A stretch of 64,000 nt of DNA. Source: Candidatus Woesearchaeota archaeon. Its GTDB lineage: Archaea; Nanobdellota; Nanobdellia; Woesearchaeales; JACJVV01. The first letter of the stretch is position 1, and the number at the start of each line of letters is the position of its first letter. The translations under genes and the position numbers were made by a program. Location of the stretch: assembly GCA_020637495.1 (NCBI GenBank), contig JACJVV010000003.1, positions 14,127 to 78,126 of the forward strand, in the 5' to 3' direction. Shown piece after piece: positions 1,331 through 63,269 of this stretch. The notes under the pieces were generated by a model, which did no database searches, was not told the origin of the DNA, and saw only the letters and a list, made by a program, of their open reading frames with translations.

Positions 1331-3133
1331 ATGTTTGGATTTCTAAAGAATAAACTCAAGGAAGCTGTCTCTAAATTCAGCAAGAAGGTTGATGAAGAAG
1401 GCAAGGAAGAAAAGGTAGAAGTAGAGAAGGAAGTAGAAGAGAAACCGAAGAAAGAGCAACCGAAAAAGGAAAAGCCTGCTCCTGAGAAAGAAGAGAAAAA
1501 GACTGAAAAGAAAGAGCCAGCTAAAGAGACTAAAGAAGAAAAGCAGGAGAAAGCTTCTGAAAAAACAGAAAAATCTGTTCCTAAGGAAGAAGAACCTCAC
1601 ATTGAAGAGAAAGAGGAGCCAAAGGAAGAGAAGAAAGGATTCTTTGCAAAACTCAAGGATACATTCAAGAGAAAAGATGTCTCAGCAATTGAAGAGATAG
1701 AAGAAGAAGGAAAAGAAGAGACTATTGAGGAGAAAGAAGAATCAAAAGATGAAAAGTTAGAGGAAGAAATCCCTGAGGAAGTTAAGGAAGAACCAGTTAT
1801 TGAGAAAGAAGAAATCATTGAGAAGAAAAAAGAAGAAGAGAAAACACTTGCTGAAGAGAAAGAGGAAGATATTCCAGAAGAACCAGCTCCTGAAGAGAAA
1901 GAAGAGATCATGGAGGAGCCTAAGGATATAACTCCCGAGATCAAGGAAGATATTGAGAAGCTCGAGGAAGATACTAAGAAAGAGGAGAAGATAGAAGAGG
2001 AGATAGTCGAGAGTGTTGAAGAGTTCGAGAAAGTCGAAGAAGATGCAGAGAGACTAGAGGAAGAAGAGAAGGAACCAGAAGAACCTATAGAAGAAGAGAT
2101 CAAAAAGCAGGAGAAAGAAGAAGAGGAGATCATTGAGGATATTGATGAGATCGAGAAGGATATCGAAGAATCTGTAGAAGAAGTAAAGGAAGATAAGGCA
2201 AGGAAAGAAGAGAAGAAAGAAGCTACTGAAGAACCAGTATCTGAGAAGAAAGGTTTCTTCGCAAAGATAAGAGAGACGATAACTACAAAGAAGATCTCTG
2301 AGAAACAATTTGAGGATATGTTCTGGGAGATAGAGATGGCACTGCTTGAGAACAGCGTCGCTGTGGAAGTGATTGAGAAAATAAAGGATGACCTGAAGAA
2401 GGCTGTGGTCGACAAACCTATCCCAAGGAAAGATGTCGAGACTTATGTCATAAAGAACATGATAAGGTCAATAGAGGAGCTCTTTGATCAGCCCAATATA
2501 GATATTATAGAGAACATCGAGAAGAAAAGGAAAGAGAAGAAACCATATGTAATCTGCTTTGTAGGAGTCAATGGTTCTGGCAAGACGACAACTATCGCGA
2601 AATTTGCCCATATGCTCAAAAATAAAGGCAAGACATGCGTTCTTGCGGCATCTGACACATTCAGAGCAGCTGCAATAGATCAATTACAACATCACGCTGA
2701 CAAATTAGAGACAAAACTGATAAGACATGATTATGACGCTGATCCTGCAGCGGTCGCATTCGATGCTATAAAGCATGCAGAATCAAAAGATAAGGATGTG
2801 GTCCTCATAGACACTGCAGGAAGACTTCATTCAAATGCAAACTTGATGGAAGAGCTCCATAAGATAGTCAAGGTTGCAAAGCCTGATCTGACAATATTCC
2901 TTGGTGAAGCGATAACAGGCAATGACTGCATAGAACAGGCAAGAGAATTCGACAAGATGGTCAAGATCGATGGCATAATACTATCAAAAGCTGATATCGA
3001 TGAGAAAGGTGGAGCAGCCATCTCAATAAGCTACGTTTTGAAGAAACCAATACTATTCTTGGGAGTTGGGCAGAATTATGAAGATTTGAGACATTTCTCT
3101 CCTGATTATATAATGAAACAGCTTGAGATATAG
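1331..3133 (+). CDS. ftsY: signal recognition particle receptor FtsY with a very long Glu/Lys-rich N-terminal domain
   Basis: The C-terminal NG domain has GVNGSGKTTTIAKFA (G1), DTAGR (G3) and ILSKADIDEKGGAAIS (G4-like). N-terminus is MFGFLKNKLKEAV. About 300 aa of EK-rich low complexity precede the NG domain. Confidence 0.95.
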   Translation: MFGFLKNKLKEAVSKFSKKVDEEGKEEKVEVEKEVEEKPKKEQPKKEKPAPEKEEKKTEKKEPAKETKEEKQEKASEKTEKSVPKEEEPHIEEKEEPKEEKKGFFAKLKDTFKRKDVSAIEEIEEEGKEETIEEKEESKDEKLEEEIPEEVKEEPVIEKEEIIEKKKEEEKTLAEEKEEDIPEEPAPEEKEEIMEEPKDITPEIKEDIEKLEEDTKKEEKIEEEIVESVEEFEKVEEDAERLEEEEKEPEEPIEEEIKKQEKEEEEIIEDIDEIEKDIEESVEEVKEDKARKEEKKEATEEPVSEKKGFFAKIRETITTKKISEKQFEDMFWEIEMALLENSVAVEVIEKIKDDLKKAVVDKPIPRKDVETYVIKNMIRSIEELFDQPNIDIIENIEKKRKEKKPYVICFVGVNGSGKTTTIAKFAHMLKNKGKTCVLAASDTFRAAAIDQLQHHADKLETKLIRHDYDADPAAVAFDAIKHAESKDKDVVLIDTAGRLHSNANLMEELHKIVKVAKPDLTIFLGEAITGNDCIEQAREFDKMVKIDGIILSKADIDEKGGAAISISYVLKKPILFLGVGQNYEDLRHFSPDYIMKQLEI

Positions 3134-3187: not shown

Positions 3188-3547
3188 ATGGCACTCAACT
3201 TAATAGGCATTGTTGTTCTGGTTGTGATATTGTTGATAGTCTATTTTCTGCTCACAGTCATGATAAGAGAGATCACTGAACTATACAAGGTTGAGCAGCA
3301 TACGATGCTTAATGCTTCTAAGATATCAGGTGTTATTGTTGGGCTGATGCTTATACAATATCTTATGTCAAAATGGGCAATCATCTCAGGGATTGTTCTT
3401 GCAGTCATGGTGATATCATTATTCTATATAATTCAGAGAGAATACAAGACAGAGCTAAAGAAGACTGTATTGATAGGGTTCTCTATAATAATTGGTTTTG
3501 GAATATTGGCTGCTGCTCTTGCAGGATTGATAATCTGGCTTAGATGA
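3188..3547 (+). CDS. small integral membrane protein, unknown function
   Basis: 119 aa with several hydrophobic helices (IGIVVLVVILLIVYFLL, GVIVGLMLIQYL, ISGIVLAVMVISLFYII, IIIGFGILAAALAGLIIW). Confidence 0.5.
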   Translation: MALNLIGIVVLVVILLIVYFLLTVMIREITELYKVEQHTMLNASKISGVIVGLMLIQYLMSKWAIISGIVLAVMVISLFYIIQREYKTELKKTVLIGFSIIIGFGILAAALAGLIIWLR

Positions 3548-3721
3548 TATCTCATTCAGTAAATTTTAAATACTTCTTGCGATTCCCTTATCCTATGACT
3601 AGCAATAATTCACTAAGTTTGGAATTGGTTCTGCTAGCTCTGCTACTATAATTAAGGCCAGCGTCATTTCTGCGGGCTTAGACAAAAACAACTAGATAGA
3701 AGACAAACCGAGGAAACAAAA

Positions 3722-3814
3722 ATGAAAACAAGAAAACAAATACAAAACAAACCTGTAAATAAACAAACTTCAAGTAATATTAGTTTGCTCTCTCTTCTGC
3801 TGCTTCTCAAGTAA
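3722..3814 (+). CDS. candidate 30-aa leader peptide ending in a leucine run (MKTRKQIQNKPVNKQTSSNISLLSLLLLLK)
   Basis: ATG at 3722 is preceded by GAGG at 3710-3713, and TAA is at 3812-3814. Seven of the last nine codons are Leu (TTG CTC tct CTT CTG CTG CTT CTC). It lies 150 nt upstream of the leuA/cimA-like gene. It is short and unconserved as far as I can tell, so this is speculative. Confidence 0.3.
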   Translation: MKTRKQIQNKPVNKQTSSNISLLSLLLLLK

Positions 3815-3873
3815 TTCTACAATGAAACAAAACAGAATTTTGAATTATATAGCTACAGCTAAAAAACAAAATG

Positions 3874-3942
3874 CAATGATAATACGCGGCACAACTATGA
3901 CTTCGTTTCACTCGTCATGTGCCTCTTTTGGTATTATCATTG
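3874..3942 (+). promoter_or_regulatory. 69-nt extended hairpin in the 5' region of the leuA/cimA-like gene
   Basis: The outer 12-bp stem is perfect: CAATGATAATAC (3874-3885) with GTATTATCATTG (3931-3942). The inner stems are GGCAC (3888-3892) with GTGCC (3919-3923), and ATGAC (3897-3901) with GTCAT (3914-3918). A TCTTTT tract at 3924-3929 follows the inner hairpin. The RBS AAGGAGG is at 3949-3955. Confidence 0.45.
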
Positions 3943-3963
3943 TCAACTAAGGAGGATAATAAG

Positions 3964-5583
3964 ATGAGAAGAATCATAACATTTGACACGACAAACAGGG
4001 ATGGTGAACAGGCATTAGGACATGCGATGCTCTATGGCGAGAAGTCGAAGATGATAATAGCAAAGGCATTGGCTGAGATGAATGTTGACATAATAGAGGC
4101 TGGATTCCCAATAAGCAGCCCAAAAGATTATGAAGCTGTTAAGATGATTGCACAGCAGATACATGGACCTAGGATTGCTGCACTTGCAAGAATCATCAAC
4201 AGGGATATTGATAGGGCATGGGATGCTGTAAAGGGAAACCCAAATCCTTATGTGCATGAATTCAGCATTTTGATCAACAAGGAAGCCTTGAAAGCTTATG
4301 AGAAAGGAATAGAAGGTGTGATGGAACATTCAGTCAAAGCTACCCAATATGCAAGGAGCATCATGGGACATAAACCTGACCTACAGTTCTCAGCACAGGG
4401 GAGCCTATATGCTATCGTCGAGGCAATCAATAGCAATGATGGACATGCACTAGAAGGGATAAAGAGATTGCATGATAAAGTAATCGCAGCAGGTGCAAAC
4501 ATCATCAACCTTCCAGATACCGAAGGGAAATGCATACCTAAAGAATCTGGAGAAGCTATCAGATGGTTCAGGAGTGAAGTCAAAGGAGGCAATGATATAG
4601 AGTTACATGTCCACTGCCATAATGATCTTGGGAATGCAGTAGCAAACAGCTTTGAGGCATTGATATCTGGAGCAGACTGTGCAGAGACAACTGTGAATGG
4701 AATAGGTGAAAGAAGCGGTAATGCTGCATTTGAAGAAGTAGTCATGAATGTGTATGCAATAGGCTCGAGATATGGCATATTTACAGATGTTGACACAAAA
4801 AGGCTTACTCCGATAAGTGATCTGGTTGAAGAGCATACTGGAGAAGCAAAAGCACCTGGCAAGGCAATCGTAGGGAAGAAAGCTTTTCAGCACAGCTCAG
4901 GCATACATCAGGATGGGAATGAGAAAGGAAACAAGAAAGGTGTAATCGTCTACCAGGCAGGATTCACAGCTGACAAAGTAGGATGGATTGGTGAAGAGAG
5001 CAGGATGACTGCAAAAGCTGGAAAACATGGTGTGGCAACAAGAGTGAACAAGCTAGGATTCAATTATAGTGTTGAAAAGGTAGAGAAAGACATCATGCCA
5101 TTGTATGAAAGCTGTGCAGATACAAGGCAAGAAGTTACAGATATGGACTTGAGAGCAATAATCAACGAAGCCTATTCTTCCAAGGATAGAGTGAATTATG
5201 TTGCACATAGTATAGACAAGCCATTCCACTCTGAAACATATTCAGGAGATGTCATCCTTAAGGTTGACGATAAGGAAGTAACCAGCGTAGTAATAGACAG
5301 AGAAAGAGATAACGTAGGCGGGATTGATGCAGTCTTCAATGCAGTAGACAGTGTTATGCCTTTTGAAGTCCCAAGACTTGTGATATATGACCCAAGGAAC
5401 ATTGGAGAGAAGCATGACACTGTTGCAGAGGTAACAATAGTATTGTCTGGAAATGGATTCGAGGGTAACTTCCACAAGGATCAGCCACTCTATATCGGAA
5501 GAGCAAGATCAATAGATACGATAGAGGCTAGCGTGAAGGCTTACATTGCAGCAATCAATGATTATTGTAGGAGAGTAAAATAA
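3964..5583 (+). CDS. leuA: 2-isopropylmalate synthase / citramalate synthase family protein (HMGL-like DRE-TIM plus C-terminal LeuA-type regulatory domain)
   Basis: Motifs ITFDTTNRDGEQA, HVHCHNDLGNAVANSFEALISGADCAETTVNGIGERSGNAAFEEVV and HSSGIHQDG. I chose ATG 3964, preceded by AAGGAGG, over the GTG at 3919 in the ORF track. Specificity (leuA versus cimA) cannot be told from sequence alone. Confidence 0.85.
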   Translation: MRRIITFDTTNRDGEQALGHAMLYGEKSKMIIAKALAEMNVDIIEAGFPISSPKDYEAVKMIAQQIHGPRIAALARIINRDIDRAWDAVKGNPNPYVHEFSILINKEALKAYEKGIEGVMEHSVKATQYARSIMGHKPDLQFSAQGSLYAIVEAINSNDGHALEGIKRLHDKVIAAGANIINLPDTEGKCIPKESGEAIRWFRSEVKGGNDIELHVHCHNDLGNAVANSFEALISGADCAETTVNGIGERSGNAAFEEVVMNVYAIGSRYGIFTDVDTKRLTPISDLVEEHTGEAKAPGKAIVGKKAFQHSSGIHQDGNEKGNKKGVIVYQAGFTADKVGWIGEESRMTAKAGKHGVATRVNKLGFNYSVEKVEKDIMPLYESCADTRQEVTDMDLRAIINEAYSSKDRVNYVAHSIDKPFHSETYSGDVILKVDDKEVTSVVIDRERDNVGGIDAVFNAVDSVMPFEVPRLVIYDPRNIGEKHDTVAEVTIVLSGNGFEGNFHKDQPLYIGRARSIDTIEASVKAYIAAINDYCRRVK

Positions 5584-5647
5584 TACTCTTTCTTTTTTTT
5601 CATTTTGTAAATTATCCGGTTACTCTCCAACAAAACATATAAACATC

Positions 5648-17337: not shown

Positions 17338-19188
17338 ATGACAAAACACGCAAAAGCTATCGGAATTGATTTAGGTACTACATTTTCTGCAGTCGCTGTA
17401 ATGGAAGGAGGAAAACCTGCAATAATCAGCAATGCAGAAGGAACAAGGACAACACCATCAGTAGTGTGGGTGAAGGAAGGCGGAAAAGAAAGAGTGATAG
17501 GACAGGTTGCAAAGAACCAGGCAATCATCGACCCTGCACACGTCGTAAGATCCATCAAGAGACACATGGGTACTGATGAGAAGATAACCATCGAAGGAAA
17601 AGACTATTCACCTCAAGAGATATCAGCGATGATACTGCAGAAACTGAAAGCTGATGCAGAAGCATATCTTGGACATAAAGTAGAGGACGCAGTAATAACA
17701 GTTCCTGCTTATTTCAATGATGCACAGAGACAGGCAACGAAAGATGCAGGAAAGATTGCAGGATTGAACGTATTGAGGATAATCAACGAGCCTACTGCTG
17801 CATCACTTGCATATGGAATGGACAAGAGCGAAGCGCATAATGTATTGGTATTCGATTTTGGAGGAGGAACATTCGATGTATCTGTACTTGAACTTGATGA
17901 TGGAGTGTTTGAAGTCAAATCAACCTCAGGAAACAACCATCTAGGTGGAGATGATGTCGATGACAAGATAATCGACTGGATCGCAGTAGAATTCAAGAAA
18001 AGCAGCGGTATGGACCTTAGGGAAGATAAGGTTGCATTACAAAGACTAAAAGATGCAGCTGAGAAAGCAAAGATTGAGCTGAGCAGTTCACAGCAAGCTA
18101 CTATCAACATACCATACATCACACAGCAACAGCACATAAACCTTACATTGTCAAGAGCTAAATTCGAGGATATGATAGGAGACATACTTGAGAAACTCAA
18201 AGGCCCTACTGAACAAGCAATCAAAGATGCTGGTGACACTAAGATAGACAAAGTGCTTCTCGTAGGAGGATCAACAAGGATACCTTCTGTGCAGAAACTG
18301 GTAAAGGAGATAACTGGAAAAGAGGGTGACAAGAGCATAAATCCAGATGAAGCAGTAGCACTTGGAGCAGCAATACAGGCAGGAATAATAGGAGGAGAGG
18401 TCAAGGATGTTTTGCTTCTTGATGTAACACCTTTAAGCCTTGGCATCGAGACATTAGGTGGAGTATGCACAAAGCTCATTGAAAGGAATACAACCATCCC
18501 TACAAAGAAGAGCCAGATATTCTCAACAGCTGCTGACAACCAGCCTGCCGTAACAATCAATGTATTACAGGGAGAGAGAGCAATGGCTGCGGATAACAAG
18601 AGCCTTGGAAGGTTTGATCTTGATGGGATCCCGCCAGCACCAAGAGGAATTCCTCAGATTGAAGTCACATTCGATATAGATGCAAACGGAATCGTCAATG
18701 TATCCGCTGCAGATAAGGCGACTGGAAAGACACAACATATAACCGTAACAGGGAACAGCAACCTTTCAAAGGAAGACATCGAGAAGATGCAGAAGGATGC
18801 TGAAGCGCATGCTGAAGAAGACAAGAAGAAACGTGAGAAGATAGAGACTTTGAATGAAGCAGAGAGCCTGGTGTTCCAGTATGAGAAGACGATCAAGGAG
18901 ATGGGCGACAAGGTAGACAAGAAACAGCTTGAGCCTGTCCAGAAAGACATCGATGACATGAAGGAATTGCTCAAAGACAAGGACAAGAATTATGAGTCCA
19001 TAAAGAAGAAGAAAGAAGAGATGACTGAGAAATTCAGCAAGATCGCGCAGGAGATGTATCAGAAGGCTGCGGCAGAGCAGCAGAAGGCGCAAGCTGCTGC
19101 AGGCGGAGATAAAACTGATGCAAAAGGCAAGAAAGATGATGTTGTTGATGCTGAAGTCGTCGATGACAATGAAGAGAAGAAGAAATGA
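17338..19188 (+). CDS. dnaK: Hsp70 chaperone DnaK
   Basis: [40 protein letters not shown] and the EEVD-less acidic tail. GGGAGG RBS upstream. Confidence 0.98.
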
Positions 19189-24592: not shown

Positions 24593-26029
24593 TCATTCAG
24601 CATTCCTTGTTCCTTGTGTTATCGTCTCCTGCCAGCCTGCTGATGTTATCCTTATGAATTCTGCGTTCTTCTGCATCTCTTTTATGTCATGAGCTCCACA
24701 ATAACTGATTCCGCTCCTCAAACCTTTCATAAGGGAAGATATGACTTCAGATACTGGACCTTTGTAGTCTACAAGAATGCTAACCCCTTCAACAAAGACA
24801 TCAATCCTATCCTTATACTGCTTCTGCTCAAGTTTCTCTTTCCTTTCCAGATTGCTTGAATAGCTAGCAGAACCCATATAACGCTTGTATCTCTTGCCGT
24901 CTTTTGCAAGTATAGGTCCTGGTGCTTCATCAGTCCCTGCAAATAAAGTCCCAGAGAATATTGTGCTTGCTCCTGCAGCAATCGCTTTTGCAACATCACC
25001 AGGAGTTTTCAAGCCACCATCTGCTGTGACAGGGATATCATACTTCTTTGCAATACTGCATACATCCATAACAGCTGTAAGTTGTGGAACACCTGCACCA
25101 GATATCTGTCTTGTGCTGCATACAGGACTTGGACCTACTCCAACTTTCAGACCATCAGCTCCTGCCTTTATCAAGTCTTCAGCAGCTTCAGCAGTAGCAA
25201 TATTACCAGCCATCACATCTGTCTTAGGGAACTTCTCTTTCAATTCCTTTATACGTCCAATCATAAGATCTGAATGTGCATGCGCAATATCTATAACTAT
25301 GACATCTGCGCCTGCTTTTATTAATGCTTCAGCACGCTCCAAGGTATCCTTAACACCTACTGCTGCAGCGACGATAAGACGACCTTTCTTGTCACGTGAT
25401 GCATTGGGCCATGTCTCAAGCTTGACTATATCTTGCGTCGTTACAAGACCAACCACTTTCCCATCCTTTAGGATAGGAAGTTTCTCTATCCTATGCTTAT
25501 GAAGAATATCTTTTGCCTTATCCAATGTTATGCTTGGGTCTGCAGTGACAAGCTTTTCAACAGACGTCATCACATCACTTATCTTTTTTGATAGGTCTTC
25601 CTCAAAGAGATAATCCCTCCTTGTAAAAATACCTTTCAGTTCTCCACTGCTTCCTTTAACAATCAGGCTTGTCACATTCTGCTTATTCATCACTTTAACT
25701 GCTTCCTCCAATGTTGCTTCTACGCCTATTGAGAGAGGATTCTCTATCATGTAACAGGTGCTTCTCTTAACCTTCTTCACTTCCTCTACCTGTTCATCGA
25801 TTGTATTGAACTGATGAATTACACCTATGCCGCCTTCCCTGGCAAGGGCTATTGCCATCTTATGCTCTGTCACAGTAGCCATATTTGCAGAGGCAAGAGG
25901 AGAATTAAGATGTATGTTCCTTGTAAATCTGCTTTCAGTGTTCGCTTCCTTTCTTGAAGATAGAGGTGTCTTCTTAGGTACAAGCAGAACATCAGAATAT
26001 GTAAGTCCTTCGCGTATATTGCTAACCAT
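24593..26029 (-). CDS. guaB: IMP dehydrogenase with CBS pair
   Basis: GLTYSDVLLVPK, a CBS-pair insert, catalytic loop VGVGPSPVCSTRQISGAGVPQ, and GGLKTPGDVAKAIAAGAS. Confidence 0.93.
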   Translation of the reverse strand: MVSNIREGLTYSDVLLVPKKTPLSSRKEANTESRFTRNIHLNSPLASANMATVTEHKMAIALAREGGIGVIHQFNTIDEQVEEVKKVKRSTCYMIENPLSIGVEATLEEAVKVMNKQNVTSLIVKGSSGELKGIFTRRDYLFEEDLSKKISDVMTSVEKLVTADPSITLDKAKDILHKHRIEKLPILKDGKVVGLVTTQDIVKLETWPNASRDKKGRLIVAAAVGVKDTLERAEALIKAGADVIVIDIAHAHSDLMIGRIKELKEKFPKTDVMAGNIATAEAAEDLIKAGADGLKVGVGPSPVCSTRQISGAGVPQLTAVMDVCSIAKKYDIPVTADGGLKTPGDVAKAIAAGASTIFSGTLFAGTDEAPGPILAKDGKRYKRYMGSASYSSNLERKEKLEQKQYKDRIDVFVEGVSILVDYKGPVSEVISSLMKGLRSGISYCGAHDIKEMQKNAEFIRITSAGWQETITQGTRNAE

Positions 26030-41452: not shown

Positions 41453-41536
41453 TGTGGATGACGAGGTTCGAACTCGCGCAAGCACTAAGCTACACGGCCC
41501 TCAACCGTGCCCGTTTGACCGCTCCGGCACACCCAC
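41453..41536 (-). tRNA. tRNA-Leu (anticodon GAG), type II, no intron, no encoded CCA
   Basis: My hand fold gives acceptor GTGGGTG/CATCCAC (one G-U), D arm with GAGCGGTCAAA loop, and anticodon stem CACGG/CCGTG with loop TTGAGGG. It also has a long variable arm, T arm GCGAG-TTCGAAC-CTCGT, and discriminator A. Confidence 0.9.
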
Positions 41537-41697: not shown

Positions 41698-42753
41698 ATG
41701 GTCAGTGCTGTAGTATTGGCGGGGGGGCAAGCAAAAGATAAGGCGAAGACTCAGCTAGGCAGATCTATCCATGCAAGAATCTATGGAGAGCATTATCTCT
41801 GGGGCAAATACAAGCCTCTCAAGCAGATCACGATAACTGACAAAGGAGAGGAGAAGACTGCACCTATGCTAGAATTTGTCGTTGATAACCTGTCAAAGGC
41901 TGAAAGTATCAATGATATAGTAATAATAGGTGAGAAAGAAAGAATCGAGAAGATGATGCCAAACACATTGGAGAGAGCCAATGCAAAAGTTATACAACAA
42001 GTTGGGAAGCTTTCAGACAATGTAATTGAAGGATACATACATACTCAGGCTTCTTTGGATGGCCTGAAAGCATTGTTTGTACCATGTGATATACCAAAAG
42101 TTAGTGCTGATAGTTATGATGGACTCCTCAAGAAATGTATCGATACTGATCTGGATGTTCTTTATGCAGTCATTGGGAAAGAAAGCATCTCAAGAAAAAG
42201 CTCACTGATGTCAAGAGCATACCATTCATTGCTCCATAATATCAATAGGATAACTGGATCTGATATGTTCCACAGCAGAGACAGGATGTATTTCAAGCCA
42301 TACTTCTGGGCTGTTGATGATGTGTTCATGCCTGAATATCAAGAGACTAAAAAGAAAAATCTAGGAAACAGCATCGTAGATGCTGTAGTTAATATATATG
42401 CAATTATCGCAAATGATCAGGACCTTCTTGATACTTCTCAGACATACAGGAGAGGATTCAGGATGGCAAACATATCATATGGCAACCCTCTTGCACTTAG
42501 TGATGAAGGGATGATTGACAAAGTATACAATGCAAGAAAACTCCTAAACCCTGCAAATATGAAAGAGGCAGCAAAAGTAGTATTCCCTGCATTCTTATCC
42601 TACTTAAGAGGAAGGCTTAAGATATCTGAAATAAATTCAATAGCATCAGAAATGCTCGGAGCAAAAGTATCACTTATAGAAGTTGAAGACATTGCAATGA
42701 CCTTAGATATTGATAGTGAGGAAGATGCTAAAGATATTATCTACTTGAAGTAG
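41698..42753 (+). CDS. nucleotidyltransferase-fold protein (MobA/GT-A-like N-domain) with long C-terminal extension
   Basis: VSAVVLAGGQAKDK...KPL... and ALFVPCDIPKVS resemble the NTP_transferase/MobA-like signature. The C-terminal about 180 aa are unrecognised. Confidence 0.5.
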   Translation: MVSAVVLAGGQAKDKAKTQLGRSIHARIYGEHYLWGKYKPLKQITITDKGEEKTAPMLEFVVDNLSKAESINDIVIIGEKERIEKMMPNTLERANAKVIQQVGKLSDNVIEGYIHTQASLDGLKALFVPCDIPKVSADSYDGLLKKCIDTDLDVLYAVIGKESISRKSSLMSRAYHSLLHNINRITGSDMFHSRDRMYFKPYFWAVDDVFMPEYQETKKKNLGNSIVDAVVNIYAIIANDQDLLDTSQTYRRGFRMANISYGNPLALSDEGMIDKVYNARKLLNPANMKEAAKVVFPAFLSYLRGRLKISEINSIASEMLGAKVSLIEVEDIAMTLDIDSEEDAKDIIYLK

Positions 42754-43231
42754 CTTCATTTGCTTTCAGGTATTCTAGCCTCGCTTCTTCAATCTTGATT
42801 GTACATGGTATCACTATATTGCTGTAGAAGTCTGCAACTGCATGCCTATTCAGGTTTAGACCTGCTGCTACATCACTAACATGATCAACAACCTCGTCTT
42901 CTCTTTGGATATTTCTCAGCTCAAAAGGCTTGCCGTTTGCTTTTCTGTATTTATCAGTTATGACTTTCTCTCCAAAAAGCACTCTTTTCTCTAAAAGATC
43001 CAATATTTGCGTATCAAAATCTTTATCATAATGTTCTTTTGCTAATGTTGTGCTGTCAACAAGACCTATATAGCCATCATATAACTTTGAGAATATCTCT
43101 GCATATTCAGGATTATTGGACTTAGGTCTCCATTCTGGAATATCTGCATCTAGCATTGCTCTTTGTGCAATAAGATTGACTATCTGCTCATCCATGCTAT
43201 CTATCTTATCCCGTATATTTTCTAATCCCAT
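42737..43231 (-). CDS. chorismate mutase-like (AroQ class) protein
   Basis: The N-terminal ENIRDKIDSMDEQIVNLIAQRAML and the later LDLLEKRVLFGEKVITDKYR...NIQREDEVVDHV...AVADFYSNIVIPCTIKIE follow the CM type II helical pattern. Assignment is by eye only. Confidence 0.4.
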   Translation of the reverse strand: MGLENIRDKIDSMDEQIVNLIAQRAMLDADIPEWRPKSNNPEYAEIFSKLYDGYIGLVDSTTLAKEHYDKDFDTQILDLLEKRVLFGEKVITDKYRKANGKPFELRNIQREDEVVDHVSDVAAGLNLNRHAVADFYSNIVIPCTIKIEEARLEYLKANEATSSR

Positions 43232-54339: not shown

Positions 54340-54389
54340 TAATAGTAATATATGAAAAGCTTCCAAGCTTTGAGTAGAAAAATAGAAAA

Positions 54390-54496
54390 TGTGGAGAGTA
54401 GGATTCGAACCCACGTAAGCACTAAGCTACTAGGTCTCTTCGACAAATCTCTTTGTCTCCTAAGCCTAGCCCGTTTGACCACTCCGGCATCTCCAC
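54390..54496 (-). tRNA. tRNA-Leu (anticodon UAG) with a 23-nt canonical (37/38) intron
   Basis: My hand fold gives acceptor GTGGAGA/TCTCCAC and a D arm like that of the GAG isoacceptor. The anticodon stem is CTAGG/CCTAG with loop CTTAGG|intron|A. The intron spans 54436-54458 and contains GACAAA-GAGA-TTTGTC. It also has a long variable arm, T arm GTGGG-TTCGAAT-CCTAC, and discriminator A. Confidence 0.88.
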
Positions 54497-54645
54497 ATAA
54501 GATGCTGAGACTTTAAATTTGTTTTATGACTCAACAATAGATTTGAGGATTTTATCTCATTTATAAACCTTTACCTATATCCCATAGCAACTATCAAGAG
54601 ACAAAAAACATAAGATATTTAAAGAGAGGACACTGAAATATATGC

Positions 54646-59637: not shown

Positions 59638-60393
59638 TCATCTCTGCTTGTTCCATCTATCTGTTGCATACTTCTCTTTGCATATCTGCAGTGCAGTATC
59701 TTCCTCAAAGAACTCTGACTGTTCAAACTCGACATCAAATGTCTCCTCGAATCCTTCTGTCAATGCTTCTGCTAATCTTTCATAGGATATCTCCTTCCCC
59801 ATATGCTTTATGCTAGTTACCCTGTCTTTTGCCGCAGATATCATCTTATCCCTTATCTTCTCGTCTGGGACTTTAAGTACTGAGAACATCTTCTCAATAT
59901 CAACATCCATAAGTATAGTGCCATGCTGCAAAACTATGCCTCCAAACCTAGTCTGTGCATTGCCGGAGATCTTCTTCCCATCAACAACAATGTCATTTAT
60001 CGGCTTGAATTCAGAATCGATCCCTAGCTTTTTCAGACCAAGAATGATCGCTCCACATATCTTCTCATAAGATTTTATTATGTCTTTTGGAAGATCATCT
60101 TCTGACAATACAATAGAATATGTCAATTCATGCTCGTGGAGAACTGCACCTCCTCCTGTATAGCGGCGGATTATGTCAATACCTAGATCTTCAGCTTTCT
60201 TGACATCAACTTCTTTTTCCAATGATTGGAAGTAACCGATAGTCACTGCGGGAGGCTTCCATCTGTAGAAACGTAATGTGTTAGGAATGATGTTCTTCAT
60301 CCTGCTTATCGCAATGGTCTCATCTATCGCCATCTGCATCGCTCCATTCGTCTCAATGTTGCCTAGCAGACGCCATTTCTCCTGCATGATCAT
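59638..60393 (-). CDS. lplA: lipoate-protein ligase A, catalytic domain
   Basis: LRFYRWKPPAVTIGYFQ, IIRRYTGGGAVLHE and GKKISGNAQTRFGGIVLQHGTIL (lipoyl-AMP binding Lys context). Confidence 0.88.
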   Translation of the reverse strand: MIMQEKWRLLGNIETNGAMQMAIDETIAISRMKNIIPNTLRFYRWKPPAVTIGYFQSLEKEVDVKKAEDLGIDIIRRYTGGGAVLHEHELTYSIVLSEDDLPKDIIKSYEKICGAIILGLKKLGIDSEFKPINDIVVDGKKISGNAQTRFGGIVLQHGTILMDVDIEKMFSVLKVPDEKIRDKMISAAKDRVTSIKHMGKEISYERLAEALTEGFEETFDVEFEQSEFFEEDTALQICKEKYATDRWNKQR

Positions 60394-61256
60394 TCTCCGT
60401 GGAGCTCTCTTGCACGATAAGAGCTTCTCACAAGTCTTCCAGACGCTGCATTCTTGAAACCCAGATCAAGAGCAATATCTTTCAGTTCCTCAAATTCTTC
60501 ATCCGAATATTCTTTGACTACATCTGCATGATCATCTGAAGGCTGCATATATTGCCCTATCGTCACAATATCAACATCAACCTTACGAAGATCCTTGAGT
60601 GTCTTGATTATGTCTTCCTTTGATTCACCAAGACCAACCATAAGACCTGATTTTGTAAGCATTATAGGATCGGTTCGTTTCACTTCTTTAAGGAGCATCA
60701 ACGATAGGTCATAATCGCCAGATGGCCTGACTTTAGGAAAGATATCCCTTGTCACCTCAATATTATGATTAAGGACATCAGGCTTTGCATCTATAATCGT
60801 CTTCAAGGCTGCAATATTCCCTCTCAAGTCGCTGATAAGGACTTCAACCTTGCATCCTTGCTTCTTGACCTCTTCAATAACCTTGACAAAGTGTGATGCA
60901 CCACCATCACCAAGATCATCCCTTGTGACACAAGTTATCACTACGTATTTCAATCCTAGTTCTTTTATTGCGTCTGCTATACGTCTTGGTTCATTCTCAT
61001 CAAGAATCTGAGGCTTGCCATGCTTAACATTGCAATAGAGACAATTCCTTGTGCATGTGTCGCCCATTATCATGAAGGTGGCAGTCTTCGCTGAGAAACA
61101 TTCGTAGCGGTTAGGACAGTTCGCTTCCATGCAGACAGTTGTTAACTTATTCTCTGTAAGAAGCGATAAAGTAGCAAGATACTGATGACGATCGATCCTT
61201 TTCTTTGCATCGCTTGGGATTGGCCGGATGCTTCCATCACTATTTCTTCCTTGCAT
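60390..61256 (-). CDS. lipA: lipoyl synthase
   Basis: Auxiliary cluster CMEANCPNRYEC (CX4CX5C) and radical-SAM cluster CTRNCLYC (CX3CX2C). Also VVITCVTRDDLGDGGA. Confidence 0.95.
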   Translation of the reverse strand: MQGRNSDGSIRPIPSDAKKRIDRHQYLATLSLLTENKLTTVCMEANCPNRYECFSAKTATFMIMGDTCTRNCLYCNVKHGKPQILDENEPRRIADAIKELGLKYVVITCVTRDDLGDGGASHFVKVIEEVKKQGCKVEVLISDLRGNIAALKTIIDAKPDVLNHNIEVTRDIFPKVRPSGDYDLSLMLLKEVKRTDPIMLTKSGLMVGLGESKEDIIKTLKDLRKVDVDIVTIGQYMQPSDDHADVVKEYSDEEFEELKDIALDLGFKNAASGRLVRSSYRARELHGE

Positions 61257-62583
61257 TCAGAACACCTATCTTTCTCTGGCATATGTCTGCCACTACAGAT
61301 AACGGTTCGAATATAGGAGCTACACTAGGATTGTAACAGTAATCAATACTGCATAAGTCAGATAATTTCATCTTATACTGGATTGCCATAGATACCAGAT
61401 CCAATCTTCCAGCTACTTCCTCATGCCCTATTATCTGAGCACCGAGTACATATCCTTTCATGTCTGCGATGAGTTTTATTATTATATCTTTCTTGTCAAG
61501 GCAATGCTCTGAACGAGTATATGCTTTGAGTCTTGCAGATGCAGTCTTGATACCTTTTCTAGCAGCTGCTTCTGTTGTCATCCCTGTTGCTCCAAAGACA
61601 GTCTCACCTATCCTTGATATGGCAGTGTTGTTTGTCCAGAATCTCAATTGCTTTTTAGGGTTTGAACTGTTGAGTATGTTATTTGCTGCAATCTGTGCCT
61701 GGCGAACAGCAGAAGTGCCCAACCATGATGTTATCGATTCTGATTTCTTTGTCTTAGGATCCTGTTTTGAGATCTCTATGCAATCACCGATGCAGTATAT
61801 ATCCTTCTTTGACTGCATCTTATCGTTCACTACAATCCCCCTGTTGAACTTTAACCCTAGTGATTTTGCAAAGTGATCCTTTACATGAATTCCAGTAGAG
61901 ACTATCAGCTTGTCACGGCTAGTAAGCTTCAGATCTTGGATGTCGTCAATACTTACGTCTGTCTTGACCTTCATACCTTTATCCTCTAATATCTTCTGGA
62001 CTATGCTGCACATATCCTGGTCGAACATCCCAGGGAGTATATGAGGTTGTCTCTCGATTATCGTTACCTTCTTTTTCTGTTCGATCAGACCCCAGCCTAG
62101 CTCCACACCTATGAAACCACCGCCTATTATTATCGCATTATCGAAAGACCTTATGTTCTTCTGCAGATATTCCACATCATCGTATGTAGTGAATGTCATG
62201 TACTGGCTTTTCTCAATGTCCTTTATCGGAGGTATGAACGGATGCGCTCCGTGAGCGAGAACCAGAACATCATAACTTATCTTCCCTTTCTTTCCTGAAC
62301 CTATGTTCTTATATGTTATCGTCTTTAGCTTATCATCCACCTCGACAGCTTCAGTATCAAGCTTGAGGTCAACATCTTCCTTAACATAATCATCCTCATG
62401 GAACAATACTATGTCTGAAAGCTTCTCGACTGTACCCTCTATTACATATGGCAGCGAACAATGAGAGTACTCAGTATGCTTCCCTTTCTCTAGAATTGTT
62501 ATAGAGATATCCTTATTCAATTTCCTGAGCTCAAACGCTGCAACAGTTCCTGCTGCTCCACCACCTATTATCACTACTTTCAC
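61240..62583 (-). CDS. FAD-dependent pyridine nucleotide-disulfide oxidoreductase, single-Cys NADH oxidase / CoA-disulfide reductase subfamily
   Basis: KVVIIGGGAAGTVAAFELRK (FAD GxGxxG), redox Cys in YSHCSLPY, second dinucleotide fold AIIIGGGFIGVELG, and CIGDC near the C-terminal FAD motif. Confidence 0.85.
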   Translation of the reverse strand: MKVVIIGGGAAGTVAAFELRKLNKDISITILEKGKHTEYSHCSLPYVIEGTVEKLSDIVLFHEDDYVKEDVDLKLDTEAVEVDDKLKTITYKNIGSGKKGKISYDVLVLAHGAHPFIPPIKDIEKSQYMTFTTYDDVEYLQKNIRSFDNAIIIGGGFIGVELGWGLIEQKKKVTIIERQPHILPGMFDQDMCSIVQKILEDKGMKVKTDVSIDDIQDLKLTSRDKLIVSTGIHVKDHFAKSLGLKFNRGIVVNDKMQSKKDIYCIGDCIEISKQDPKTKKSESITSWLGTSAVRQAQIAANNILNSSNPKKQLRFWTNNTAISRIGETVFGATGMTTEAAARKGIKTASARLKAYTRSEHCLDKKDIIIKLIADMKGYVLGAQIIGHEEVAGRLDLVSMAIQYKMKLSDLCSIDYCYNPSVAPIFEPLSVVADICQRKIGVLNARKK

Positions 62584-62936
62584 TTGAAATCTCCTTTGTC
62601 AGTTGTGTTGAATTCATCTATTATCTTCTCTACCACTTGCAGATGCATCATGGCAGGACCTCCTCCCATGACTACAGCGACCCAACATGCAGAAAGAATC
62701 TCATCTTTTGAAAGTCCTGCCTTAAGAGCTGCCCTGACATGGGCGACAAGACAATATTCACAACCATCCTTTATAGCAATTGCAATAGCAATGAGCTCAA
62801 CAGTCTTCTTATCGAGCTTGCTTTCTACAACATCCATGAACTCATAGAAAGATTTCATCTGGTCGGGAGTTGATTCCCTTAATCTTGACAGACCATGAAC
62901 TGTATCCCTTAATAGTTGCTTATAATCTTCAGCCAT
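62580..62936 (-). CDS. carboxymuconolactone decarboxylase / AhpD-like family protein
   Basis: 118 aa. LIAIAIAIKDGCEYCLVAHVRAALKAGLSKDEI is the CxxC...H motif typical of AhpD-like alkylhydroperoxidase-fold proteins. Confidence 0.8.
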   Translation of the reverse strand: MAEDYKQLLRDTVHGLSRLRESTPDQMKSFYEFMDVVESKLDKKTVELIAIAIAIKDGCEYCLVAHVRAALKAGLSKDEILSACWVAVVMGGGPAMMHLQVVEKIIDEFNTTDKGDFK

Positions 62937-62948
62937 TCATCAATCACC

Positions 62949-63269
62949 TTAATCAATCTTAACTTTCATTATCCAGCTTCCTTTTGGATCATTGTTTATT
63001 ACAGATGGATCATCAAACAATGCATCATTCACTTCAACTATCTTCCCTGTGACCGGACTATTGACATGTCCAGACCATTTTACAGCTTCAAGCGTCACAT
63101 ATTTCTCGCCTTTTGCGATCTTCTTTCCTTTCTCTGGAAGCTCAATGAACATGAACTCTTTTGCCTGCTTTGCAGCTTCCTCAGTTATTCCAACTGTGGC
63201 TATTTCTCCTTCAACCTTAACCCAAGAATTTTCCTCTGTATATTGCTTGTCTGCCATTTTATGCATCAT
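62949..63269 (-). CDS. gcvH: glycine-cleavage H-protein-like lipoyl carrier
   Basis: WVKVEGEIATVGITEEAAK...FIELPEKGKKIAKGEKYVTLEAVKWSGHVNSPVTGKIVEVNDAL...PSVINNDPKGSWIMKV gives the lipoyl-Lys in the (E)-x-V-K context. The true start may be the internal MADKQ. Confidence 0.85.
   Translation of the reverse strand: MMHKMADKQYTEENSWVKVEGEIATVGITEEAAKQAKEFMFIELPEKGKKIAKGEKYVTLEAVKWSGHVNSPVTGKIVEVNDALFDDPSVINNDPKGSWIMKVKID

Follow-up and report, generated by a model that had tools for sequence, protein, structure and literature searches.

The 64-kb stretch of DNA analysed here, referred to as the window, carries a divergent gene of the isopropylmalate synthase (IPMS) family at 3964-5583 on the forward strand. 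The intergenic region of 416 nucleotides (nt) in front of this gene (3548-3963) raises the question of what it does. In a Woesearchaeota-like (DPANN) archaeon, the region is probably the 5' leader of the synthase messenger RNA and would sense, through the ribosome, how much leucine is available. A preliminary description had made a 69-nt hairpin, together with a leucine-run open reading frame (ORF), the main element of a possible attenuator or translational control sensing charged tRNA-Leu, in a region otherwise free of ORFs. Two further ORFs were found in the region, ORF1 (3595-3651) and one of 42 codons (3822-3950). The conserved unit was one which that description had missed, comprising a TATA box, the putatively leaderless ORF1, a helix within it (stem A) and a hairpin just past its stop codon (hairpin B).

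The synthase matches the Pfam families HMGL-like, HCS_D2 and LeuA_dimer. Its best NCBIfam models are IPMS equivalogs, every one of which scored under its curated cut-off. The closest source-named homologs of the synthase are labelled Candidatus Woesearchaeota, and archaeal markers in the window include prefoldin, FtsY, a prolyl-tRNA synthetase of the archaeal/eukaryotic type and a tRNA-Leu with a 23-nt intron. The first 12 kb of the window is AT-rich, with a G+C content of 34-44%. No leu or ilv genes were found among 27 other window ORFs scanned, which is a partial check of the orphan status of the synthase only.

The leader in the window

The leader promoter is a consensus TATA box (TTTAAATA) at 3565-3572 (+), starting 30 nt before the ATG at 3595. 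ORF1 (3595-3651, +) has 18 codons, encodes MTSNNSLSLELVLLALLL and ends in a leucine run. At many genes of the window a TATA-like 8-mer precedes the ATG by about 30 nt, a spacing that implies leaderless mRNAs. Motifs resembling a ribosome-binding site (RBS) are found at a minority of genes in this genome, several of them close behind an upstream gene. Given its distance from the TATA box and the frequency of leaderless starts, ORF1 is as expected for the first cistron of a leaderless transcript, and the synthase, whose ATG at 3964 has a strong AAGGAGG RBS (3949-3955, +) before it, for an internal cistron of the same transcript. The TATA-ATG spacing would thus place the sensor ORF at the transcript 5' end. 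In 14 of the 15 units compared below, the TATA 8-mer (or TTTATATA or TTTAAAT) precedes the leader ATG by 29-33 nt; in the remaining one, from locus L094, the distance is 37 nt. In all 18 leader ORFs no more than one codon separates the amino acid run from the stop.

Stem A (3597-3639, +) is formed by ACUAGCA, just after the AUG, and UGCUAGC, which comprises the first Leu-Leu-Ala codons. The pairing predicted in the window is of 3599-3604 with 3632-3637 (pair probability 0.81), and RNAalifold also predicts stem A. Over nine distinct units 88.9% of cells are paired and both sides change in 5 of 9 pairs, the arms for this count having been chosen by a motif-anchored pattern that favours core pairs. 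The covariation score was 0.358 compared to 0.171 ± 0.042 for shuffles, none of 500 reaching 0.358, and slid controls were far lower. Covarying base pairs, which the preliminary description had proposed looking for, are therefore present in stem A. Its 5' arm falls in different reading frames among the units.

Hairpin B (3655-3679, +; AGGCC…UUUCUGC…GGCUU) begins 4 nt past the ORF1 stop. Each of the 15 leaderless units has a hairpin 0-7 nt past the stop; the stems differ in sequence, and the loop ends in UUCU(G/A)G in 11 units. Compensatory pairs in hairpin B were predicted by RNAalifold. The 45 nt from the leader stop had a median folding energy of -9.1 kcal/mol; for gene 3' flanks the value was -3.1, and for the stops of random short ORFs it was -4.7 (p ~1e-8). 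Purifying selection acts on the leader at the nucleotide level: loci L003 and L096 have 0 differences over 121 leader bases but 14 over 171 bases of adjacent coding sequence. No variants in the leader were found among contigs of three activated-sludge DNA runs. A comparison with Rfam gave no match at gathering threshold except a tRNA, and 3450-4050 gave only chance-level matches at E values up to 10.

ORF2 (3722-3814, +), the leucine-run ORF of the preliminary description, is led by an RBS, GAGG, at 3710-3713 (+), 8 nt before its ATG. It has 30 codons and a stop and encodes MKTRKQIQNKPVNKQTSSNISLLSLLLLLK, ending in ISLLSLLLLLK. Six of its seven Leu codons (TTG CTC CTT CTG CTG CTT CTC) are CUN. 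Position, RBS, peptide end and codon count are all as first described. ORF2 is kept in the two closest lineages, L001 and L002 (synthase identity to the window 67% and 63%), where it ends in …NLLLLQLLLNLLK and …LSLLLLLD, respectively, and follows an ORF1 encoding MTSNIYSNNESFLLVLLL and MANNNCTNCDMLLLVLLL. The sequence AGAGGTA occupies the position of the ORF2 RBS in both. The A-rich 5' part of ORF2 and a CTGCTTCT motif are conserved at the nucleotide level. The 5' half (window 3722-3770; L001 5816-5870; L002 2049-2100) is A-rich and poor in G and U, with a conserved AAAACAAAAAACAAAT core and, in L001 and L002, runs of A6-A7. Its nucleotides are conserved more than the peptide. One possibility is that this half is an unstructured landing site for a ribosome or a factor.

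A weak hairpin of about -3.9 kcal/mol (3813-3839, +) pairs AAUUCU (3813-3818) with AGAAUU (3834-3839) and starts inside the ORF2 stop codon. It had been noted previously with an end at 3838, one base short. A hairpin at or just past the ORF2 stop is also present in L001 and L002, with other sequences. Leucine-tailed ORFs, defined by at least 5 Leu in the last 8 residues, number 4 among the 840 ATG ORFs of 10-60 amino acids in the window. Two of the four are ORF1 and ORF2, adjacent to each other before the synthase. Such a pattern exceeds what chance would give.

The extended hairpin of 69-71 nt (3873-3943, +) has a minimum free energy of -24.9 kcal/mol (z = -6.2, 200 shuffles) and a pair probability of 0.94-0.97. 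It had been placed at 3874-3942. The perfect 12-bp outer stem reported there is present, or 13 bp including a G-U pair, and the inner stems are of 6 bp (GGCACA/UGUGCC) and 4 bp instead of two of 5 bp. The TCTTTT after the inner stem was confirmed, as were the AAGGAGG and the ATG at 3964. A stretch of about 85 nt (roughly 3840-3945) which includes this hairpin is missing from L001 and L002. Since these are the two closest orthologous loci, the hairpin is a window-specific insertion and not a conserved part of the leader. Thus, of the two features whose conservation in relatives had been put forward as a check, the leucine-run ORF is kept and the 69-nt hairpin is missing, and the view that the hairpin is a conserved part of an attenuator was rejected. 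So was its assignment to H/ACA-like or other known small RNAs, and no Rfam family matched it. A repeated mobile element within the window was likewise rejected, as the hairpin is single-copy there and no further copies were found elsewhere in the 64 kb.

A speculative third unit (3844-3950, +) would consist of a TATA-like ATTATATA at 3844-3851 and a possible leaderless ORF3 at 3876-3950 (MIIRGTTMTSFHSSCASFGIIIVN), with 32 nt between the TATA-like motif and the ATG. Both arms of the 69-nt hairpin are built from Ile codons of ORF3 (AUG AUA AUA and AUU AUC AUU), and the ORF3 stop codon abuts or overlaps the synthase RBS. The comparison of loci gave ORF3 no support. It may speculatively be a third, Ile-type unit with its own promoter, or a coincidence.

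Related leaders and the match of run to pathway

The loci compared are part of the close homologs of the synthase, and the counts of lineages are lower bounds. An ORF with a leucine run 29-37 nt past a TATA box lies upstream of the orthologous synthase in at least 11 lineages, the window, L001, L002, L003, L004, L011, L094, L097, L098, L099 and L100. Synthase protein identity to the window was 43-67% for the lineages compared with it. L003 and L004 (51% and 49%) have ORF1 alone, encoding MMKLTVKLGLLGLLLLVLLLL, followed by an ORF of 122-123 amino acids. This ORF (L003 5006-5374; L004 5633-6004) lies between leader and synthase, is conserved and matches neither Pfam nor NCBIfam models. The 4-nt overlap of its end with the synthase start suggests that the two are translationally coupled. 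No homology was found among the small ORFs after some leaders beyond L003 and L004. The leader of L011 (43%) ends in …LLALGLLLLLLLL, and a DDE transposase gene (L011 3871-4722, -) lies directly upstream of, and divergent from, its promoter. The leaders of L097, L098, L099 and L100, whose synthases are 69%, 59%, 54% and 51% identical to P0008, encode …LLALGLLLLLLLL, MKLENYSNLLLLLL, …SLLVLVLLLL and …LSGLGLLLLLLLL, respectively.

Leucyl-tRNA synthetase (LeuRS) genes, with the editing domain PF13603, lie 23-38 nt downstream of the synthase in L004 (7710-10349) and L009 (6680-9307). In these two clades the gene order, with LeuRS next after the synthase, connects the synthase with the handling of leucine. 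In L004 the LeuRS gene is thereby downstream of a Leu-run leader, and from this arrangement it may be co-regulated by that leader.

JGI metagenomes were searched with the leader motif alone, consisting of the TATA box, the 5' and 3' arms of stem A and three Leu codons. Four loci were found, and all four lie upstream of this synthase family. One of them, L094 (…LLALLLLLLLLL), is a new lineage. An unbiased scan was also made for a TATA box, an ATG and a short ORF whose last 9 residues include 5 or more of one kind. In 154 kb of archaeal loci it returned 13 distinct leader ORFs, of which 12 are the leaderless units and the thirteenth is ORF2 of L002, with an A-rich TATA-like motif at about -30. 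ORF1 was the sole match in the 64-kb window, and 547 kb of bacterial leuA loci gave no matches. A protein-profile scan of GTDB genomes was dominated by bacterial leuA at 33-37% identity and gave no clade member. P0009 was rejected as a clade member, being a bacterial locus.

The composition of the leader tails is strongly biased. Leu accounts for 71 of 100 residues in the last ten positions of 10 leader ORFs, and for 87% of the hydrophobic residues in leader tails compared to 23% in the membrane proteins of this genome. The ratio of TTR to TTY codons in the tails is 28:1, while that of CTR to CTY is 33:19 (Fisher p = 9e-4). As 28 of 29 TT codons are purine-ended, and so encode Leu and not Phe, while CT codons are free, selection is on the encoded or decoded amino acid and not for a pyrimidine tract as such. 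The leaders taken together use all six Leu codons. The CUN bias is therefore particular to ORF2, and sensing specific to CUN codons was rejected.

Three successive units, each with a TATA box and a putatively leaderless ORF, are present in L097 (2318-6350) and L100 (2321-6384). Unit 1 has a Leu run and precedes an IPMS-like gene. Unit 2 has an Ile/Leu/Val mix (MKLTSTKQILNLIVLVLVLVIIVL) and precedes an ORF of about 100 amino acids. Unit 3 has an Ile run (…ANIIIIIIIG and …SAIIIIIIG) and precedes a second HMGL/LeuA_dimer paralog. The unit-3 paralog of L097 scores as a citramalate synthase (TIGR00977, 474.6 bits, over the cut-off of 450), and that of L100 has its best match to the Leptospira-type CimA model, below the cut-off of that model. 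The pyruvate route to isoleucine begins with citramalate synthase. A run residue matched to the downstream pathway is a hallmark of leader-peptide sensing. Stem A is present alike in the Leu, Ile/Leu/Val and Ile units, and this common element indicates that the units are homologous.

The small ORFs after unit 2 (L097 4254-4583, 109 amino acids; L100 4327-4605, 92 amino acids) cannot be aligned to each other. The unit-2 leader peptide, hairpin and AAGGTGA RBS are conserved between L097 and L100, and the real target of the Ile/Leu/Val unit may lie further downstream. A convergent LeuRS gene lies beside the three-unit cluster in L100.

Proposed mechanism and alternatives

Read from the sequence, transcription would start about 30 nt past the TATA box at 3565, at or beside the AUG of ORF1, and ORF1 would be translated leaderless. 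The Leu runs of ORF1 and of the RBS-led ORF2 lie directly before the stop, and RNA helices would flank each of them: stem A precedes the ORF1 run, and both stops are immediately followed by a hairpin. With charged tRNA-Leu in good supply, ribosomes would traverse the runs and leave. The vacated pyrimidine-rich runs would then pair with the purine-rich initiation regions downstream, keeping synthase expression low. When charged tRNA-Leu is scarce, ribosomes would stall on the runs, the pairings would stay open and the next cistron would be translated.

The clearest pairings of this kind are in L011, L097 and L100, where a 13-bp helix is predicted between the Leu run and the sequence abutting the RBS (AGAAGUAGUAGUC|AGGAGG). 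The helix energies are -20 to -26 kcal/mol compared to -14 ± 3 for the null. As read from the sequences, the three runs differ synonymously, and G-U pairs keep the pairing intact. In the predicted fold of the window 3697-3703 pairs with 3793-3799, 3710-3712 with 3788-3790 and 3803-3809 with 3965-3971. The RBS region of ORF2 is thus paired with the Leu run of ORF2 itself, and the last Leu codons of ORF2 (3803-3809) with UGAGAAG of the synthase start (P = 0.67). Pairing of the run with the RBS is significant in the three lineages and no more than suggestive in the window.

A number of results weigh against a leucine-sensing leader of this form. Run-to-initiation pairing in the window, L001 and L002 was no better than composition. 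Shuffling of the run within the full leader of these three was non-significant, as was synonymous recoding of the runs scored for pairing with the next initiation region (Fisher combined p = 0.12). A sliding 30-nt ribosome mask gave no consistent opening of the RBS with the Leu run masked. By four kinds of control the window pairings are no better than a pyrimidine-rich run opposite a purine-rich start would give, and the mechanism is therefore extended to the window by analogy. The model gives stem A no role and leaves it unexplained. Both the direction of regulation and its purpose assume a leucine pathway beyond the synthase. A search of RNA runs for the window sequence gave no match. The lineages are related, so that p-values across units overstate independence. 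One clade, L009 and L010, has no leader ORF, and the synthase directly follows the TATA box (L009 4972-5003; L010 205-236). With its ATG 29 nt past the TATA start the synthase itself appears leaderless there, and the leader has thus been gained or lost within the gene family.

Of the other explanations, a classical transcription attenuator is quite improbable. In such a device a ribosome stalled at Leu codons would decide between antiterminator and terminator structures (3813-3839, and 3873-3943 with TCTTTT), and transcripts would end early when leucine is plentiful. In its favour are the Leu-run leader, the hairpin that starts at the ORF2 stop and, ahead of the gene, the very stable hairpin containing an internal U4, but the last of these is not conserved. 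The longest T-run in the window leader is T4, compared to the T6-T8 runs after several gene ends, such as the T8 at 5593-5600 after the synthase stop codon and the run after DnaK (17338-19188). Archaeal intrinsic termination depends on such oligo-T tracts and not on hairpins. T6 does occur past ORF2 in L001 and past ORF1 in L004, and termination could contribute in some lineages, but the leaders of L002, L011 and L094 have no T-runs and no terminator is conserved across lineages. A bacterial promoter and terminator scan, itself uninformative here, gave no terminator site, and no conserved pairing that would set stem A against hairpin B was found. With the 69-nt hairpin not conserved and a conserved T-rich terminator lacking, the terminator/antiterminator structures of the preliminary description are unsupported, while its idea of a Leu leader sensing tRNA-Leu is strongly supported by the comparison of loci. 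A translational mechanism is more likely than a terminator/antiterminator switch, and factor-dependent termination or effects on mRNA stability may be part of the output.

It also looks unlikely that the leader is an untranslated signal, with stem A and hairpin B bound by a protein or acting as an inverted-repeat operator and the Leu codons a by-product of a pyrimidine-rich tract. The conservation of stem A whatever the reading frame, the recurrent UUCUG in the loop of hairpin B and a leader more conserved than the neighbouring coding sequence would all suit such a signal. The codon-specific pattern does not, as TTR is almost never replaced by TTY while CTN is free. Every unit has an ATG at the expected transcription start and a stop directly after the run, the G-U pairs of stem A suit RNA and not a DNA palindrome, and the match of Leu or Ile to the downstream enzyme would be left unexplained. 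A protein-binding role of the helices could coexist with ribosome sensing. It is very improbable that ORF1 and ORF2, instead of being sensors, serve to make small hydrophobic peptides with a function, such as membrane-associated partners of the enzyme. The ORFs are conserved across lineages, and in some the tails have 14-17 hydrophobic residues after Lys or Asn, like a short membrane anchor. However, the Leu share of these tails is far from that of the membrane proteins of this genome, the hydrophobic stretch in the window clade is just 6-11 residues and broken by E, S, Q or N, the N-terminal parts show no peptide conservation, with the 5' motif in different frames, and the residue becomes Ile before citramalate synthase. 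An origin of the ORFs and hairpins by chance in AT-rich intergenic DNA is scarcely credible. Short ORFs and weak hairpins are common in such DNA, and the hairpin at 3813-3839 is weak, but the Leu-tail count, the motif search, the codon bias, the post-stop folding, the unbiased scan and the stem A covariation are all contrary, as is conservation down to 43% identity of the downstream protein. Chance is refuted for ORF1, ORF2, stem A and hairpin B and is possible for the speculative ORF3 alone.

Genomic context, known systems and implications

The gene downstream of the window synthase is an HD/OB-fold gene, and no LeuRS gene was identified beside the synthase. Both tRNA-Leu genes that read CUN codons are present in the window as had been reported, tRNA-Leu(GAG) at 41453-41536 (-) and tRNA-Leu(UAG) at 54389-54497 (-). 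The latter contains the 23-nt intron and was found by Rfam and by ARAGORN with introns allowed, but was missed by default ARAGORN. Their location in the window is incidental. FtsY (1331-3133, +) has an N-terminal extension of about 300 amino acids, Glu/Lys-rich and of low complexity, and a spurious Ser-rich ORF of 272 amino acids lies antisense to this extension (1597-2415, -). A cluster at 59638-63269 (-) encodes a lipoate-protein ligase, a radical-SAM protein, a pyridine-nucleotide disulphide oxidoreductase and a glycine-cleavage H protein. Other metabolic genes in the window are those for IMP dehydrogenase (24593-26029) and a chorismate mutase domain protein (42737-43231). These and the lipoate/glycine-cleavage cluster seem to be isolated metabolic genes of a genome that is apparently reduced.

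In bacteria, attenuation by a leader peptide is textbook knowledge. The leuL, ilvL and ivbL leaders of E. coli are likewise short ORFs enriched in codons for the end product, with a Leu run before leuA. Their mixed Ile/Val/Leu leaders are comparable with unit 2 of L097 and L100, and in them the ribosome senses tRNA charging. Unlike the leaders described here they require alternative terminator and antiterminator hairpins with a U-run, and the bacterial RNA polymerase. Aminoacyl-tRNA synthetase attenuators are found in pheM-pheST and in the leuS leaders of Streptomyces, a leuS leader peptide being described by Seliverstov et al. (2005, PMC1262725). LeuRS follows the synthase in L004 and L009, but this linkage is one of gene adjacency, and the window synthase differs in being without an identified LeuRS neighbour.

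The same source, in its account of the actinobacterial LEU element before leuA, describes a conserved pseudoknot and proposes a candidate binding protein (PMC1262725). As described there, the LEU element resembles the present leaders in having a Leu-run upstream ORF before an isopropylmalate synthase gene and no obvious terminator. Its proposed base stem pairs the Leu codon run with the leuA RBS, the same logic as here. Judged by that description of the LEU element, the present leaders are set apart by stem A, hairpin B and their archaeal setting.

The poly-Cys leaderless short ORFs of mycobacteria were shown experimentally to be cysteine-responsive translational attenuators (Canestrari et al., bioRxiv 10.1101/834739). 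As in that system, the ORF is a (here predicted) leaderless first cistron with the run at its 3' end, several loci are involved (a 'ribulon') and no terminator is needed. The poly-Cys run pairs around the RBS of the next gene, and the same helix from run to RBS edge is predicted in L011, L097 and L100. Unlike the mycobacterial ORFs, the present ones are archaeal, have a TATA promoter and use Leu, Ile and Val rather than Cys. The run is flanked by stem A and a post-stop hairpin, the window clade has two leader ORFs in series, and the run pairing of the window itself is statistically indistinguishable from composition.

Full-text literature searches for leader-peptide attenuation in Archaea found bacterial precedents only, in agreement with the preliminary description, which knew of no described archaeal case. 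In archaeal ribosome-profiling papers upstream ORFs are merely called 'reminiscent of' bacterial leader peptides. The sensing principle would be the same here, but in another domain, with another promoter and initiation mode, other flanking structures and no terminator. The chances are somewhat better than even that Woesearchaeota-like DPANN archaea have a family of ribosome-mediated sensors made of homologous leaderless mini-ORFs, with Leu, Ile or Ile/Leu/Val runs, between stem A and a post-stop hairpin. Each would control the matching entry enzyme of a branched-chain pathway, IPMS-like or citramalate synthase, and probably LeuRS too, with no bacterial-type terminator. This would be the first leader-peptide attenuation in Archaea, and the window would have two such units in series, possibly with a third of the Ile type that forms the 69-nt hairpin.

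If this is true, sensing of tRNA charging by the translating ribosome would regulate genes in the third domain of life, with leaderless mRNAs and no hairpin-dependent terminator involved. It would bear on the coupling of transcription, translation and mRNA folding in archaea. The units are short, modular and amino-acid-specific and could serve as amino-acid-responsive expression parts. The leaders suggest that these archaea, with reduced genomes and presumably dependent on a host, keep watch on how much leucine and isoleucine they have and retain a regulated IPMS and citramalate synthase, which raises the question of what role these seemingly isolated enzymes have.

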